Assembly: GCA_964372775.1 (NCBI GenBank)
Contig: CAYJRJ010000002.1
Coordinates: 1 to 61,763, forward strand
DNA length: 61,763 nt
Direction of reading: 5' to 3'
From: an uncultured Planctomycetales bacterium
GTDB lineage: Bacteria; Omnitrophota; Gorgyraeia; Aquiviventales; Aquiviventaceae
In this document: positions 3,360-36,300 of the stretch, piece by piece
Layout of the letters: every line of letters begins with the position of its first letter
How positions within the stretch are numbered: position 1 is the first letter of the stretch
Position numbers and translations under genes: made by a program
Notes under the pieces: model-generated
Databases searched by the model: none
What the model was told of the DNA's origin: nothing
What the model saw: only the letters and a program-made list of their open reading frames with translations

Positions 3360-6127
3360 TGGCCCGCCGCGACACGCATCAGGAAAAACTCGCGCCGCTG
3401 CGCCGCGATGTCCACTTTGTCGGTGAGCTGCTCGGGCAGGTCCTCATCCAGCAGGAAGGCCGAGCCTTTTTCGACATCGAAGAGCGGATCCGTAAGCTCG
3501 CCATCCGCGCGCGCCGGGCAGGCGCTGGCCGCGGCGATGCCCAGCTGCGTCGGCTCTTGGCGCACCTGCCGCTGGCCACCGCAGAGAAGATCATCCGCGC
3601 CTTCTCGGTCTACTTCCAGCTCGTCAACCTCGCTGAGGAAACGCACCGGTTGCGCCGCAAACGCCACTACGAGACGCTGCCCGGCTTCCATCCCCAACGC
3701 GGCTCCATCGAAGACGTGGTCCACCGCCTGGCCCAGGCGCGCATCTCCTATGAGACGCTGGCGAAACGCACGGCTGACGTGTCGATTACGCTCGTGCTAA
3801 CTGCGCATCCGACCCAAGCGCTCCCCCCGACGGTGCTGATGAAGCACCGGGCGATCTGGGAGCTGCTCATGAAGCGCCAGCTCCTCAATCCGTCCCCCAA
3901 GGAAGAGCAGGCGATCACCCGCGAGCTGCTCGAGCAGATCATGAGCCTGTGGCAGACGGATGAGCTGCGCACAAGCCGCCCCACCATCCAGGATGAAGTT
4001 GAGCAAGGGCTCTACTATCTGTCGACCGTGCTCTACGACGCGCTCGCTGAGGTCGTCATGGCGTTTCGCACCGACGTGGAGCGAGTCTATGGCCGGACCT
4101 TGCCCCTGCATCCTCTGGTGCGCGGCGGCAGCTGGATCGGCGGCGACAAGGACGGCAATCCCAATGTCACCCATGAGTCGCTGCGCTGGGCGCTGTTGCG
4201 CTACCGGCAGGCGATTCTAGAGAACTATCTCGGCTCGCTGGACCGGCTGCACGAGCATTTGACCCACTCGGATCAGCTCTGCCGCATGCTGCCCGCGTTC
4301 ATGCGCTCGCTCGCGAATGACCGGCGCAGCTTCCCGGCGCTGGTGGAATCGCTGGACCAGCGGTTCCCGCATCAGCCGTACCGGCAGAAGCTGGCACTCA
4401 TGAGCCACCGGCTGCGCCAGCTCCTGCGCTATCCGGCGGAAGGGGAAGGCGGCTACTCCAGTGTGGAGGAGTTCCTCCATGATGTGCAGCTGCTCCAGCG
4501 CAGCCTGCTGGCCCATCGCGCCGAGCCGATCGCCAACCATGACGTGGCGAAGCTGTGCCTGCAGATCTCGCTGTTCGGGTTCGCCTTCGCTCGGCTCGAC
4601 GTGCGCGACCATAGTCAACGCCACGTGGCGGCATTTGCTGAACTGGTCCGGCTCCATGAGCTTTCGCCGCAGGACCCGATGGCGATACCTCAGGCCCAGC
4701 GGCGCGAGCTCCTCGACCAGTTGCTCAGCCAGCCGCGCTACATCGAGCTGCTCAAGGGATGCTCGCCCGACACCCGGGAGGTGGTGCGCACCTTTCAGGT
4801 GATGGCGCAGCATCTCGATGACGTGGACCCGGAGGCGATCGACGGCTACATCATCAGCATGACGCGCAGTGCTAGCGATGTGCTGACCGTCCTGTGGTTT
4901 TTCCAGCAGGCGGACCTGTTCCGCCGCACGACTCGAGGCTGGTGGAGTGGGGCGAACATCATCCCGCTGTTCGAGGGGATCGAGGATCTGCGCAACGCCC
5001 CCGGCATCATGGAGGAGCTCTACCGGCACCCCGTCTATCAGCAGTACCTGCGCGCCCGTGAAGGCCGGCAGCAGATTCAGCTCGGCTACTCCGATTCCAA
5101 CAAGGACGGAGGATTTTTTACCGCGAACTGGGAGCTGTATCAGGCGCAGCGCCGACTGCATGCGGTGGCCAAGCGGCATCGCGTTGATCTCCAGCTGTTC
5201 CACGGCCGCGGCGGGGCCATCGGCCGCGGCGGAGGGCCGCTGCATCAAGCCATCCTGGCGCAGCCGCGCGGCACCCTCGAGGGTCGCATCAAAATCACCG
5301 AGCAGGGTGAGGTGATTGCCGCGAAATACTCCACGCCCATGCTGGCATTGCGCAACCTGGAGCTGGTGCTCTCGGCGGTGCTCGAGGCATCACTCATCGC
5401 CCCGAAGCTGCCGGCGCACCTTGCGGCATGGGAAGAGGCGATGGAGGAGCTCTCGCGCTTAGCCTACCAGCGATACCGGCAGGCCGTGTACGAGGACGAA
5501 TCGTTCATCCGCTATTTCGAGCAGGCGACGCCGATCGATGCCATCAGCGAATTTCGGATCGGCTCGCGGCCGGCGCGCCGCAGCGCCTCCCGACGCATCG
5601 AGGATTTGCGGGCGATTCCGTGGGTCTTCAGCTGGGTGCAGAGCCGGCAACTGTTGCCGAGCTGGTTTCCGTTCGGCTTGGCCGTGGAGCAATTCACCCG
5701 ATCGCACTCGGGAGGGCTCGACGCGCTGCGGCAGATGTACGCGGGCTTTCCGTGGTTTCACGTGATGGTCGAGTTCATTCAGATGAGCATGGGAATGGCG
5801 GATCTGCGCATCGCGCGGCAGTACGCGTCGCTGGTAAGGCCATCGGCGCTGGGCCGGCGGATCTTCGGTCTGCTGGAAGAAGAGTTCCATCGCTCGCGCC
5901 GAGCGGTCATGGCGATTACGCAGCAGCGAGAGCTGTTGGACTCCAACTATGTCCTCCAGAACGCCATCCGGCTGCGCAATCCTTATGTGGATCCCATCAG
6001 CCTGCTGCAGGTGCGGTTCTTGCAGGAGCGGCGGCAGGCAAGGGGATCGCAAGAGCGTAAACGGCTCGAGCGGCCCCTGGCGCTGACCATCAACGGCATC
6101 GCCGCCGGCATGCGACATACTGGATGA
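3359..6127 (+). CDS. ppc: phosphoenolpyruvate carboxylase
   Basis: VLTAHPTQ, GRGGAIGRGGGP and the C-terminal INGIAAGMRHTG signatures are present. ATG 3359 overlaps the upstream stop (TGATG). The longer ORF-track start at 3128 overlaps the previous gene. Confidence 0.93.
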   Translation: MARRDTHQEKLAPLRRDVHFVGELLGQVLIQQEGRAFFDIEERIRKLAIRARRAGAGRGDAQLRRLLAHLPLATAEKIIRAFSVYFQLVNLAEETHRLRRKRHYETLPGFHPQRGSIEDVVHRLAQARISYETLAKRTADVSITLVLTAHPTQALPPTVLMKHRAIWELLMKRQLLNPSPKEEQAITRELLEQIMSLWQTDELRTSRPTIQDEVEQGLYYLSTVLYDALAEVVMAFRTDVERVYGRTLPLHPLVRGGSWIGGDKDGNPNVTHESLRWALLRYRQAILENYLGSLDRLHEHLTHSDQLCRMLPAFMRSLANDRRSFPALVESLDQRFPHQPYRQKLALMSHRLRQLLRYPAEGEGGYSSVEEFLHDVQLLQRSLLAHRAEPIANHDVAKLCLQISLFGFAFARLDVRDHSQRHVAAFAELVRLHELSPQDPMAIPQAQRRELLDQLLSQPRYIELLKGCSPDTREVVRTFQVMAQHLDDVDPEAIDGYIISMTRSASDVLTVLWFFQQADLFRRTTRGWWSGANIIPLFEGIEDLRNAPGIMEELYRHPVYQQYLRAREGRQQIQLGYSDSNKDGGFFTANWELYQAQRRLHAVAKRHRVDLQLFHGRGGAIGRGGGPLHQAILAQPRGTLEGRIKITEQGEVIAAKYSTPMLALRNLELVLSAVLEASLIAPKLPAHLAAWEEAMEELSRLAYQRYRQAVYEDESFIRYFEQATPIDAISEFRIGSRPARRSASRRIEDLRAIPWVFSWVQSRQLLPSWFPFGLAVEQFTRSHSGGLDALRQMYAGFPWFHVMVEFIQMSMGMADLRIARQYASLVRPSALGRRIFGLLEEEFHRSRRAVMAITQQRELLDSNYVLQNAIRLRNPYVDPISLLQVRFLQERRQARGSQERKRLERPLALTINGIAAGMRHTG

Positions 6128-6140
6128 CGAGCAACGGAGC

Positions 6141-6192
6141 GTAACGCGTAAGGCGTAACGCGTAACGTTACGCGTTTCACGTTACGCGTTAC
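6141..6192. repeat. hairpin built from tandem heptamers (GTAACGC / GTTACGC), probable terminator after ppc
   Basis: gtaacgc gtaaggc gtaacgc gtaac | gttacgc gtttcac gttacgc gttac. The arms are near-complementary. Confidence 0.8.
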
Positions 6193-9510: not shown

Positions 9511-9608
9511 TCGGGACAGTCCCATTTTTCGCTACGAGATGCGGTACGAATCGGGACAGTCCCCTTTTTCGCCACGAAGCCGATGATGCGAAAAAGGGGA
9601 CAGTCCCG
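9511..9608. repeat. three copies of the GGGACAGTCCC(C)TTTTT palindromic repeat (two direct, one inverted)
   Basis: tcgggacagtcccattttt (9511), tcgggacagtcccctttttcg (9551) and the inverted cgaaaaaggggacagtcccg (9589-9608). Confidence 0.85.
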
Positions 9609-10700: not shown

Positions 10701-10758
10701 CGGGACTGTCCCCTTTTTTGCTTCCTAGCCTCCACTTGTAAAAAAGGGGACTGTCCCG
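10701..10758. repeat. GGGACTGTCCCC-T6 hairpin (same family as 9511, 11823, 35581)
   Basis: cgggactgtcccctttttt ... aaaaaaggggactgtcccg. Confidence 0.85.
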
Positions 10759-11822: not shown

Positions 11823-11868
11823 CGGGACAGTCCCTCCGCCACAGTTCTTTGGCGGAGGGACTGTCCCG
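11823..11868. repeat. perfect 18-bp GGGACAGTCCC-family hairpin, probable terminator
   Basis: cgggacagtccctccgcc (11823-11840) is the exact reverse complement of ggcggagggactgtcccg (11851-11868). Confidence 0.85.
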
Positions 11869-14962: not shown

Positions 14963-15065
14963 CCACAGATCGCACAGATAAAGCACCCCCACAGATGACA
15001 CAGATAACACGGTCTATCTGTGCGATCTGTGGATCAGTTCATCTGTGCTATCTGATCTGTGTTAC
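14963..15065. repeat. CACAGAT-motif hairpin cluster after the PilX-like gene
   Basis: ccacagatcgcacagata (14963-14980) is the exact reverse complement of tatctgtgcgatctgtgg (15015-15032). Further CACAGAT/ATCTGTG copies flank it. Confidence 0.8.
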
Positions 15066-24547: not shown

Positions 24548-24548
24548 T

Positions 24549-24646
24549 GGAAGCTAGAAGTTGGAAGTTAGAAGCTGGAAAAAACGGAGCCCTTCACTGG
24601 GTCTTTCTTGGTTTCCAACTTCTAATTTCCAGCTTCCAACTTCCAG
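24549..24646. repeat. heptamer-periodic hairpin (GGAAGYT/AGAAGYT family)
   Basis: ggaagct agaagtt ggaagtt agaagct ggaa ... ttccaac ttctaat ttccagc ttccaac ttccag. Confidence 0.85.
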
Positions 24647-33629: not shown

Positions 33630-34256
33630 ATGGAGCTGATCCGGCTGCTGATCAGCGCGCCCCAGCTCTTTCTCCTGTTGGCGGTGCCGCTGTTGTATTC
33701 CGTCATCGCGCATGAAGTGGCGCATGGCTTCTGCGCGAGGGCCTTCGGCGATCAGACCGCCCAGCGCGCCGGGCGGTTGACCCTCAACCCCCTGCCCCAT
33801 CTGGACCCGGTAGGCTTGCTCATGCTGTTGTTCGTGGGGTTCGGCTGGGCCAGGCCGGTGCCGGTGAGCTATGGGAGCCTGCGGCCGTTGCGTGCGGGCA
33901 TTTTCTGCGTAGCACTAGCCGGCTGCGCAACGAACATCCTCCTCGCCGGGCTGGCACTCCTGGCGCTGCAGGCACACGTGGTCAGCCCGGAATCGATGCC
34001 GGCCACCGTGCTCCTGATTGTGGCGCGGATCAATCTCATCCTCGGGGCGTTCAACCTGATTCCGATCCCGCCGCTGGACGGCTCGCGAATTCTCCTGAGC
34101 CTACTGCCTCCGGAAGGTCAGCGGGCCCTGCTGAGGCTTGAGCGTTACGGGTTCATGATGCTGATTCTGCTGCTGGTCAGCGGCCTGTTGGACCCAGTGA
34201 TCCGGGGGATGGAGCAGGCCGTCCTCTGGCTCGTCGGCCTCTTGTTGGCCATATGA
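33630..34256 (+). CDS. site-2 protease family (M50) membrane metallopeptidase
   Basis: HEVAHG (HExxH), LNPLPHLDP and NLIPIPPLDGSRIL are present. Confidence 0.85.
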   Translation: MELIRLLISAPQLFLLLAVPLLYSVIAHEVAHGFCARAFGDQTAQRAGRLTLNPLPHLDPVGLLMLLFVGFGWARPVPVSYGSLRPLRAGIFCVALAGCATNILLAGLALLALQAHVVSPESMPATVLLIVARINLILGAFNLIPIPPLDGSRILLSLLPPEGQRALLRLERYGFMMLILLLVSGLLDPVIRGMEQAVLWLVGLLLAI

Positions 34257-34354
34257 AGAGATCCGATTTTGTCGAGTATGTGGTGCAGGACGCGCTGTCA
34301 GAGCTTCACGGCGTTCGAGCCCGGGCGATGTTTGGCGGCTGGGGAAAAGGGTGA
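34253..34354 (+). pseudogene. truncated TfoX-N-terminal-domain fragment (33 codons)
   Basis: MKRSDFVEYVVQDALSELHGVRARAMFGGWGKG* carries the TfoX_N RxMFGGxG motif, then stops where full-length proteins continue. ATGA overlap with the M50 stop. Confidence 0.5.
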
Positions 34355-34438
34355 GGGATTTGAATTCAAGAGCCTACAATGCTGTAGGCTACCGAAGTGA
34401 AGAAAGGTGCCAACCATCGAAGGGCAGGCATTTCCTAG

Positions 34439-34756
34439 ATGAAGAAGCGTCTCGCGGTCATTACGTATGGCTGTTCCCTCGTCGGAGATCTCAGCCCTCG
34501 GCTTCGATCGAATGAAGAGCTACTCTAAGCTAAGTGTGGAAGGGTATTCTGGCTGCCACCTCGTCGGAGGTCTCCGCCTTGGGCGTCGACTCCTCCTCGG
34601 TATCAACCGTAGGTCTGGAGTGAGGATGGTCGCCAGATGAGCAAAACCATCTTTCTCCAGACCTACGGGTGTTCCCTCGTCGGAGATCTCGGGCTTCGCC
34701 CTCGACTCCTCCTCGGGATCACCCATAAGTTTGCGGTGGGGATGGTCCTAAGATGA
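34439..34756 (+). promoter_or_regulatory. miaB leader: three short ORFs (A 34439-34528, B 34512-34640, C 34637-34756) with hairpins enclosing each SD/ATG
   Basis: The last two units have a 116-nt period. ORF C repeats the MiaB N-terminus MSKTIFLQTYGC. B/C and C/miaB are joined by ATGA. Perfect stems lie at 34607-34620/34655-34668 and 34722-34734/34773-34785. Confidence 0.7.
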
Positions 34757-36300
34757 GCAAAACCATATTTCTGCAAACTTATGGGTGTCAAATGAACTCC
34801 CGGGATTCGGAGGAAGTGCTTGGGATGCTGACGGCGCAGGGCTACGAGATTGCTGAGCAGCCTGAGGCAGCCGACGTCATCCTCCTCAATACCTGCTCGG
34901 TGAGGCAGCATGCCGAGGAGCGGGCGTTCGGCAAGATGGGAGAGCTCTCCGAGCTGAAGAAGGAGAAGCCCGACCTCGTGCTGGGCATCATTGGGTGTAT
35001 GGCGAAACTGCAGCAAGAAGATATCTTTCGACGTCTGCCCCGGGTTGATCTAGTGGCCGGTCCTGCCGAATTGTACGATTTGCCGTATCTGTTAGCGGAG
35101 ATACAAGAGAAGCGCCAAAAAACAGACTTGGCTGAGGGTTATGGGTTGGGGGTTGGGGGCAAGAATGGTCTGCCCACAACCCCGAACCCCCAACCCCGAA
35201 CCAGGGTGGTCGCGGTGAGACGGCAGTACCGGCCACTTGAGAAGAAGCCGGTTGGCGATTACCGTACGCCTGGCGTCAACGCGTTCGTCACCATCATGGA
35301 AGGGTGCGACAAGGCGTGCACGTACTGCATCGTGCCCAAGACGCGCGGGCAGGAGATCTCGCGCCCCGCCGAGGAGATTCTTGAAGAGCTCAACCGCCTC
35401 GTTGAGGCTGGCTACCAGGACATCACGCTGCTGGGTCAAAACGTCAACTCCTACGGCAAGCGGTTTCCGGATGGCTCAGGCTACAAGGGTCCGCTTGGCC
35501 GACTGCGTCTCTTAGAGGAAGAGCCTGACTCGCTGCTCGATTTTCCGGCGCTCTTACGGCGCATCGACGCTTCGCTACGAAATGGGGACAGTCCCCTTTT
35601 TCCGAAGGGAAAAAGGGGACTGTCCCCATTACGGGTGCGGTTTACGACGAGCCATCCGTTTGACGCCAACGAGCGGCTGTTTGAGGCGATGCGCGACTGC
35701 GACTCGGTCTGCGAGTGGCTGCATTTGCCGGTGCAGTCCGGCTCCAACCGCATCCTGCGGGCGATGCGCCGGGGCTACACCGTCGAGGCTTACTTGAACA
35801 AGCTCGAGCAGCTGCGCCGCTGCGTGCCGGAGATCAGTCTCTCGACGGACATCATTGTCGGCTTCCCAGGAGAGACCGACGAAGACTTCCAGGCGACGGT
35901 GCGGCTGCTCGAGGAAGTCCGCTACGACATCGCCTACATCTTTAAGTACTCGCCACGGCCGGGGACGGATGCGGCCGCGCGCGAGGATGATGTGCCCCAA
36001 GAGGTGAAAGAAGAGCGCAACCAAATACTCCTCGCGCTGCACGAACAGATCCTGCGCGAGCTGCTGGCCGCGTTCGTCGGCCGCGAGGTCGAGCTCCTCA
36101 TCGAAGGGCCTGGCAAGATGCCCGGCCAATGGTTCGGCCGCACCCGCGGCAACTACGGCGTCATTGTGGAAAGCGACAGCCCGATCATCGGAGCGCGGCT
36201 GGATGTGACCATTGCCCGCGCCGGCTCGCGTACGCTGTTCGGCGCTCTACCCGCAGGTGAAATTTTTGTTGGACAGGGTTCACCTGTTGCGCGACAATAA
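34753..36300 (+). CDS. miaB: tRNA-i6A37 methylthiotransferase MiaB (with two in-frame palindrome-encoded inserts)
   Basis: TYGCQMN, the radical-SAM motif CDKACTYCIVP and a TRAM-like C-terminus are present, with miaA downstream. At 515 aa it is longer than the usual ~440-450 aa. Confidence 0.9.
   Translation: MSKTIFLQTYGCQMNSRDSEEVLGMLTAQGYEIAEQPEAADVILLNTCSVRQHAEERAFGKMGELSELKKEKPDLVLGIIGCMAKLQQEDIFRRLPRVDLVAGPAELYDLPYLLAEIQEKRQKTDLAEGYGLGVGGKNGLPTTPNPQPRTRVVAVRRQYRPLEKKPVGDYRTPGVNAFVTIMEGCDKACTYCIVPKTRGQEISRPAEEILEELNRLVEAGYQDITLLGQNVNSYGKRFPDGSGYKGPLGRLRLLEEEPDSLLDFPALLRRIDASLRNGDSPLFPKGKRGLSPLRVRFTTSHPFDANERLFEAMRDCDSVCEWLHLPVQSGSNRILRAMRRGYTVEAYLNKLEQLRRCVPEISLSTDIIVGFPGETDEDFQATVRLLEEVRYDIAYIFKYSPRPGTDAAAREDDVPQEVKEERNQILLALHEQILRELLAAFVGREVELLIEGPGKMPGQWFGRTRGNYGVIVESDSPIIGARLDVTIARAGSRTLFGALPAGEIFVGQGSPVARQ
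35136..35202. repeat. heptamer-periodic hairpin (GGGTTGG / CCCCRAA) inside the miaB frame
   Basis: gggttat gggttgg gggttgg ggg c aagaatggtct gcccacaa ccccgaa cccccaa ccccgaa cc. It encodes GYGLGVGGKNGLPTTPNPQPRT. Confidence 0.8.
35581..35630. repeat. perfect 23-bp GGGACAGTCCCC-family palindrome inside the miaB frame
   Basis: aatggggacagtcccctttttcc-gaag-ggaaaaaggggactgtccccatt. It encodes NGDSPLFPKGKRGLSPL between RRIDAS and RVRFTTSHP. Confidence 0.9.

Follow-up and report, generated by a model that had tools for sequence, protein, structure and literature searches.

The 61,763-nt stretch of contig CAYJRJ010000002.1 analysed here (the window), whose clade is labelled Omnitrophica or Planctomycetales depending on the source, carries the gene cluster miaB-miaA-hflX-hrcA-grpE-dnaK-dnaJ, which is headed by miaB. 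Directly upstream of miaB lies a tandem array of short modules, each composed of two adjacent hairpins, together with three miniature open reading frames (ORFs A, B and C). An earlier note on this DNA regarded the array as a leader that controls MiaB translation. The hairpins are real and covary, and the upstream ORFs correspond to 5' ends of miaB, but the idea of a leader that evolved in place does not hold up well: the region is best read as at least three stacked generations of a ~116-nt module that would have replaced the 5' end of miaB. The features of the locus, all on the plus strand, are as follows (a slash within a codon string marks the point of joining).

34360 to 34438: oldest remnant, a decayed module tail plus the Shine-Dalgarno (SD) region before N-terminus A; contains the imperfect palindrome 34360-34401 (inverted repeat I3)
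34439 to 34474: fossil miaB 5' end A (MKKRLAVITYGC), up to its Cys codon; found as N-terminus of the homologues P0018 and P0051, the block also in L170 (P0121)
34475 to 34511: truncated module A, the first 37 nt of hairpin I; direct repeat family D2, pattern match with 0 mismatches
34512 to 34556: relic B, a degenerate 5'-end remnant (...TAAGCTAAGTGTGGAAGGGTATTCTGGCTGC) that ends in GGNTGY; also precedes the module in L081 and L084
34557 to 34602: module B, hairpin I; RNAalifold consensus columns 1-46 and single-sequence fold
34604 to 34671: module B, hairpin II, with 5' arm, SD-like tract, ATG at 34637 and fossil codons 1-12 (N-terminus C); 14-bp perfect stem
34673 to 34718: module C (gene-proximal), hairpin I; covarying pairs 11:36, 12:35, 19:29 and 21:27
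34720 to 34787: module C, hairpin II, with 5' arm 34720-34736, SD-like tract ~34738-34746, miaB ATG at 34753 and 3' arm 34771-34787 (codons 7-12)
34788 to 34789: accretion junction TGT/CAA (Cys12/Gln13), where module homology stops and the gene body starts; seen after every unit, in L164 (large serine recombinase element) and in Phycisphaerae
34753 to 36300: miaB, 515 amino acids

The mechanical ORF list confirms ORF A (34439-34528) and ORF C (34637-34756) as the earlier note had given them. ORF B exists as well, but it is listed from 34467, and the start at 34512 that had been assigned to it is an internal ATG. ORF C and MiaB share the N-terminus MSKTIFLQTYGC, and the twelve residues are encoded with five DNA differences (ATC/ATA, CTC/CTG, CAG/CAA, ACC/ACT and TAC/TAT), all of them synonymous; the junctions between ORF B and ORF C and between ORF C and miaB both read ATGA, as had been noticed before. 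The N-terminus of ORF A (MKKRLAVITYGC) is exactly the real MiaB N-terminus of P0018 and P0051. Its SD region, the N-terminus itself and the initial 37 nt of the module form a homologous block in the related locus L170, where ~34400-34511 of the window corresponds to ~4955-5073 with roughly 85% identity by our own estimate; mean column identity over the entire two-sequence alignment is 77%. ORFs A, B and C are thus former miaB 5' ends that were displaced upstream. Relic B might alternatively be what is left of the 3' end of a GIY-YIG gene since lost, but the similarity is only short (TGTGG..AAGG, TTATCTTTAA).

The N-terminal copies are separated by 80 non-coding nucleotides that do not derive from the gene: aligned to miaB, they scored 12-17 against shuffle means of ~14, i.e. 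no better than shuffled sequence. Hence the array is not a simple decayed duplication of the gene 5' end, which was the fallback of the earlier note. The upstream ORFs do copy the miaB 5' end. Among 80 homologues (3160 pairs), the similarity of the first 11 residues was not correlated with that of the rest of MiaB (rho 0.02, in a star-like tree that gives little power), which would fit an exchange of 5' ends. In about one third of the close MiaB homologues (P0001-P0120), the window record P0001 (502 amino acids) among them, the annotated protein begins at Met-14 (MNERD...) or later, and an in-frame start lies ~13 codons upstream wherever the DNA was read (window, L081, L082, L083, L169, L181 and L182); the start-site miscall at the miaB locus is systematic. 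In L003 (1-115) the contig starts 115 nt upstream of miaB; its first 12 codons are nearly identical in DNA to those of the window, and the upstream sequence has CTGACCCTG repeats. The contig end may represent an assembly break at a repeat.

Tandem Repeats Finder reports a period of 116 nt with 2.0 copies and 80% matches at 34559-34788, and a third, partial copy is located at 34463-34507. The window is a single contig of a metagenome-assembled genome (MAG), and an expanded repeat could in principle be an assembly artefact. The copies differ at 20% of their positions, which makes the expansion of an identical repeat by the assembler impossible; moreover, L166 and L167 show the same arrangement from two samples, and arrays are also present in L081, L170 and the Phycisphaerae genomes. 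We consider an artefact extremely improbable.

Five full copies of the window type (modules B and C of the window, L081, L084 and L170) align without gaps across 116 nt, and RNAalifold predicts two adjacent hairpins. Hairpin I (46 nt) occupies columns 1-46 with the outer pairing UCCC...GGGA; inner stems follow, and the tip has 4 bp. Hairpin II (68 nt) occupies columns 48-115 and consists of an upstream arm, a loop with SD and AUG, and codons 1-12; miaB codons 7-12 form its 3' arm, and their reverse complement forms its 5' arm. Column 1 is the base right after one Cys codon and column 116 the final base of the next, so that the repeat unit is bounded by the feet of the hairpins. The first stem (34607-34620 / 34655-34668) comprises 14 bp and is perfect, as described earlier; the second (34720-34734 / 34773-34787) turned out to be longer than the 13 bp given before, with 15 bp perfect and 17 bp counting one G-U. 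Folding of the region gave z-scores of -3.9 to -6.1, and none of 200 shuffles folded as well, which places the structure proposed in the note beyond chance. The strands are about equal in this respect, the minus strand folding as well as the plus strand or better. Hairpin II of module B has a predicted energy of -41.4 kcal/mol and that of module C one of -31.3 kcal/mol. The SD and start codon had been described as buried: the SD-like tract indeed pairs weakly with codons 4-6, but the main stem pairs codons 7-12, and the miaB AUG is predicted to lie in the apical loop without a pairing partner (P unpaired 0.96).

The compensated changes between the two window copies, including those of a small hairpin (cgcc/ggcg versus gggc/gccc), are present as the earlier note had reported; the small hairpin is only part of the 46-nt covarying hairpin I. 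Double-sided changes affect 10 predicted pairs among the five copies according to RNAalifold, four of them in hairpin I. By our count, 95% of the stem cells pair, compared with 36-49% when the partners are slid by 1-3 columns. None of 500 shuffles matched the observed covariation score or the percentage paired, and one of 500 matched the count of doubly changed pairs. The unpaired bases of the internal loops (TCGTC, TCCTC and TCGAC) are invariant. With four copies from Phycisphaerae added, nine copies are available, which form two groups of related sequences with six distinct arm pairs: pairing holds in 152 of the 153 main-stem cells of hairpin II, and 6 of 17 positions show double changes. 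The covariation described in the note is strengthened by this comparison between genomes. The stems change solely by compensated substitutions, and the module is accordingly structure-constrained.

A covariance model was built from the five window-type copies (its E-values are rough). It scores module C at 145.6 bits and module B (34557-34672) at 125 bits, and gives a weak match at 34475-34552 for the region of truncated module A; run over the whole window with filters off, it finds only 34475-34800. The module is also present at the miaB start of three related MAGs. A hairpin arm complementary to codons 7-12 was found at 9 of 154 miaB starts, namely those of the window, L081, L084/L166/L167 and four Phycisphaerae-type loci. 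The module is missing in most relatives (L001-L004, L085, L168, L169, L181 and L182). Displaced copies are still intact in module B of the window, L084_2 and L170_2. A metagenome scan with the MiaB alignment revealed at least two family members among the matches listed, protein searches with read-through peptides retrieved only P0121 and P0122 (two further contigs), and a protein search with the antisense ORF returned nothing. The best Rfam 15 hits of the region (window 34000-35200; L028 2750-3100) are miRNA and snoRNA models with 14-21 bits, far below gathering.

The covariance model matches the miaB start of four Planctomycetota species with 25-33 bits (L028, L037, L060 and L064; three are labelled Phycisphaerae/Phycisphaerales and one Planctomycetaceae), whose MiaB proteins are just 37-39% identical to that of the window. 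The order at these loci is a GIY-YIG gene, GGCTGY, in most cases an older and partly decayed unit, a relic ending in ...GGGTGC (in all of them), hairpin I and hairpin II. Hairpin I reads TCCCGCAGTTTTGC-TTCG-GCAAAACT..GCGGGA, and hairpin II reads GCAACCGT (gttt) AGGTTTGCAC ... ATGAGAATTTTT GTGCAAACCTACGGTTGY, followed by CAGATGAAC; the unit spans 108 nt, with SD and AUG in a loop of 21-33 nt. Among the four species the module is 90-99% identical, versus 68-82% for the miaB coding sequence (CDS). Similarity between the two clades ends at the QMN codons. The near-identity of the module arms and ends, where MiaB itself is so divergent, suggests horizontal movement. The small GIY-YIG (COG2827-type) gene stands directly upstream of the module in L028 (2503-2799), L037, L060 and L064. 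It is 59% identical to the GIY-YIG gene of L182 (3046-3390) near miaB, while MiaB is less than 40% identical between the clades.

The units start right after GGNTGY everywhere: in three units of the window, in L081, in two units each of L084 and L170, and likewise at the Phycisphaerae loci with up to two units each. The target is the universally conserved sequence TAYGGNTGY/CARATGAAY (YGC/QMN), and other relatives carry insertions at the same site. One example is the large serine recombinase (LSR) gene immediately upstream of miaB in L082/L165 and L083/L164, whose 3' end overlaps an element-supplied miaB N-terminus. Two generations are visible in L164, where miaB is preceded by a complete LSR element and, upstream of that, by a degraded LSR with a displaced N-terminus (MPRLWLGSYGC); both junctions lie after TGC. 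Its reconstructed attP contains a 9-bp inverted repeat (AAAGTTCTA/TAGAACTTT) ~16-19 nt from the junction. The LSR elements at miaB codon 12/13 span 3158-8051 in L164 and 4218-5840 in L165, and their cargo includes PIN, MscL and a Phage_rep_O-like gene. No hairpin was found at LSR-associated or other relatives' miaB starts, and tblastn with the LSR proteins of L164 and L165 gave no match in the window, L081, L084 or L170.

Further rearrangements are documented by three loci. In L167 (2220-3000; L084 3441-4220) a two-gene cassette of DUF5674 and a 110-residue ORF follows miaB codon 29 and has brought a divergent 87-nt miaB 5' end; the hairpin-bearing 5' end has been displaced, and the new start is hairpin-free. 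Toxin-antitoxin genes (RelE/MqsA-like and ParE) are located further upstream of this cassette. In L170 two modules plus the N-terminus MRKSIFLQTYGCQ break off into a glycosyltransferase gene; the front end joined to this gene (5117-5164) lies within a lipopolysaccharide gene cluster, apart from any miaB body. In L182 a GIY-YIG gene and yajQ are placed between the N-terminus-A relic and miaB, and a hairpin-I-type palindrome has been inserted alone in L182/L183.

The same data bear on a cis-regulatory explanation, in which hairpin II of the mRNA blocks ribosome loading on miaB until ribosomes on the upstream ORF melt the 5' arm and re-initiate at ATGA. A variant holds that the hairpin forms only in read-through transcripts, by a fold-back of the IS10 type, the tandem copies being by-products of slippage. 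We regard such a leader as possible but somewhat doubtful. In both clades the start codon always sits near the apex of hairpin II, even though the loop sequences are wholly different; one-sided changes in the main stem all give a G-U pair on the sense strand, never A-C, and the inner stem is rich in G-U; hairpin I of L028 and L060 has a C-UUCG-G loop; and the module is better conserved than the adjacent CDS. On the other hand, the minus strand folds equally well or better, displaced copies remain intact, and most relatives and the current L167 miaB start lack the hairpin. The coincidence of unit boundaries with hairpin feet and Cys codon would also be left unexplained.

In five of five window-type copies an open frame runs in from the preceding Cys codon and terminates at ATGA or TAATG. 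None of the three frames of the unit contains more than one stop, which makes the open frame weak evidence, and in L081 and L084 the entering ORF has neither a good start nor a good SD. Among the Phycisphaerae copies, none of the four has an upstream or entering ORF that ends at the start codon. The ORF/ATGA relay therefore does not seem to be the conserved property of the module, although a relay in this particular genome is possible. The hairpin-bearing 5' end is dispensable for miaB, given the hairpin-free new start of L167 and the small share of starts that carry the hairpin. Two regulatory ideas of the earlier note were not supported. Sensing of tRNA modification through UNN codons would call for an enrichment of these codons, but their share is 13-14% in ORFs A-C and 14% in miaB, and the stems with 15-17 perfect pairs are far too stable for a thermosensor. 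A terminator was rejected as well: there is no T-run and no terminator-like site in the region. No plus-strand promoter in the units passed the scan. The only site is sigma-70-like and on the minus strand (34791 to 34762; TTGACA-18-TATGGT, 10/12), within miaB codons 4-13 and antisense into the array; one such site was found where 0.5 are expected by chance. Also discarded was an RNA switch in which the 5' arm of hairpin II would pair to its left with the fossil N-terminus before it; such pairing is partial in the window and absent in L081.

A different explanation dispenses with function. The units might be neutral scars, i.e. joined attL/attR sites of deleted integrative elements amplified by slippage, whose arms were matched by template switching (quasi-palindrome correction) and not by selection. 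The LSR attP at the miaB locus does carry inverted N-terminal codons across the junction, older copies decay (L084-1, L170-1 and the older Phycisphaerae hairpin II), and GGNTGY direct repeats at a spacing of 116 nt favour slippage. Scars should, however, change faster than coding DNA, and the Phycisphaerae modules do the opposite; in the window-type copies the stems covary while the internal loops stay invariant, and two clades that differ in the interior of hairpin I have retained one two-hairpin architecture. Neutral scars are thus in our view improbable.

Taken together, the fixed junction, the displaced real N-termini, the foreign 80-nt spacer, the pair of covarying hairpins that delimits each unit, the tandem accretion seen in two clades far apart, the conservation of the module above that of coding DNA and the junction shared with recombinase-bearing elements lead us to read the module as a horizontally spreading unit of 5'-end replacement that requires its hairpins in order to insert or duplicate. 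We assign this reading a probability of roughly one half. What the sequences show is that incoming DNA with its own start and first 12 codons joins the gene inside TAYGGNTGY/CARATGAAY, and the resident 5' end is pushed upstream, where it persists as a dead mini-ORF. The hairpins may help the module to insert or duplicate by offering recombination a substrate of palindromic or single-stranded DNA, on which an enzyme supplied in trans would act. In relatives an LSR is used at the same junction, and a GIY-YIG gene adjoins the Phycisphaerae module. A structure-specific GIY-YIG nuclease or a serine recombinase is a possible mobilising enzyme. Since the mRNA structure unavoidably pairs codons 7-12, translation of MiaB here would probably require unwinding of this stem by ribosomes arriving from the fossil ORFs. 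Horizontal replacement and a translational gate are not mutually exclusive.

Several observations weigh against a mobile module. The array is the single locus in the window, which is the only part of the genome covered, with no second one in its 61 kb, and searches of viral contigs with four module patterns gave no matches or chance matches only, so that mobility is deduced from distribution alone. Pfam searches of the window ORFs between 24.5 and 47 kb revealed no recombinase, transposase or integrase, and tblastn of the window with LSR and GIY-YIG proteins was negative. The LSR elements of relatives lack these hairpins, their link with the module being the junction and not the sequence. A function in RNA would explain its high conservation and the G-U pairs of the sense strand just as well, slippage between GGNTGY repeats could generate tandem copies without any enzyme, and the comparison includes just nine copies from two groups of related sequences.

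Close parallels among known systems are the dusA islands with their DAI integrases and other islands that enter the 5' end of a gene and restore it, where the integrating island swaps the gene 5' end for its own copy and leaves the original end as a remnant; the same study also cites a mobile element that targets the MiaB-like rimO gene (Farrugia et al. 2015, PMC4482086). The miaB module likewise targets a tRNA-modification gene, replaces its 5' end and leaves the old end as a remnant. It differs in that the unit is only 116 nt long, integrase-free and stacked in tandem, the replacement end being one arm of a covarying hairpin, and the recombinase in miaB relatives is an LSR and not a tyrosine integrase.

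Prophages and other elements with an LSR are known from within genes, such as SPbeta in spsM, the skin element in sigK and A118 in comK; these classic cases split the gene and supply no new start. The insertion within a CDS is comparable, as are the dyad-symmetric attP and the recombinase gene at the element end in L164. A fixed crossover with a displaced gene end is found here too, all junctions lying after the Cys-12 codon. The half-site dyad typical of LSRs (~20-25 bp) has a 9-bp repeat as its counterpart in the L164 attP, but in the window, which lacks an LSR, the inverted copy of the module (17 bp, perfect) lies 47 nt from the junction, beyond hairpin I.

Small palindromes with compensated stems that form mRNA hairpins and are presumably mobilised in trans include REP/REPIN sequences, MITE-like palindromes (Correia, ERIC) and the Rickettsia palindromic elements. 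The module hairpins share the compensated stem changes, and such elements also occur in this genome, but the module is not dispersed, is tied to miaB and has one arm that is functional coding sequence including the start region. A REP/MITE-like family with the structure CGGGACAGTCCCC-T5...A5-GGGGACTGTCCCG is located at window positions 9552-9608, 10701-10758, 11823-11868 and 35578-35633 (8 matches versus 0.14 expected), and a related motif, GGTGACAGTCACC, adjoins the modules in L084, L170 and L182. Two in-frame palindromic elements inside miaB, at 35137-35202 (66 nt) and 35578-35633 (56 nt), lie where the length of the family varies; they encode ...GYGLGVGGKNGLPTTPNPQPRT... and ...NGDSPLFPKGKRGLSPL... 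and resemble Rickettsia palindromic elements. More strong inverted repeats, with arms of 18-34 nt, are found at 2319-2461, 6141-6192, 14963-15032 and 24548-24631. Upstream of the array and next to the M50 peptidase gene, at 34253-34354, a truncated ORF of 33 residues resembles TfoX_N on visual inspection (...MFGGWG) and has no Pfam match; it lies between the two.

Fold-back inhibition of the transposase mRNA of IS10 and IS50 and MS2-type coupling via start-occluding hairpins resemble the arrangement in that a hairpin between upstream sequence and the start region makes translation depend on the origin of the transcript or ribosome. In contrast to them, miaB is a host housekeeping gene, and its arrangement, known here from sequence, is tandem-repeated and travels between lineages. 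Arrays of integron attC sites also have hairpin sites at the unit boundaries, the newest unit beside a fixed site and an ordered stack. The miaB units are gene-free, no IntI was seen, and the core sites R''/R' (RYYYAAC/GTTRRRY) are not conserved: these positions read GGGTGT, GGCTGT and GGCTGC, and the hairpin foot reads CACCC/GGGTG or CAACC/GGTTG without a conserved GTT. An identity with attC was therefore rejected.

Under either reading, replacement or gate, the module is a conserved, structured two-hairpin motif without a match in Rfam 15. If the hairpins gate translation, they would constitute a leader of undescribed type, controlling a tRNA-modification enzyme at the head of a miaB-to-dnaJ cluster. 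We tentatively suggest, well short of a firm claim, that the module represents a new kind of non-autonomous mobile element: a ~110-nt two-hairpin "front-end cassette" that homes to the YGC/QMN site, the most conserved DNA of miaB, and crosses phylum boundaries. One arm of its recombination hairpin would provide SD, start codon and codons 1-12 and so keep the gene alive, and an ordered fossil record of earlier gene starts would be left behind. If it is mobile, it would offer a minimal route by which selfish DNA can settle in an important and highly conserved gene and leave it active, and the first codons of a housekeeping gene would be exchangeable horizontally, independent of the gene body. 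This would bear on start-site annotation and on the phylogenetics of gene ends, and the fossil stack upstream of miaB would be a record of its insertion history.

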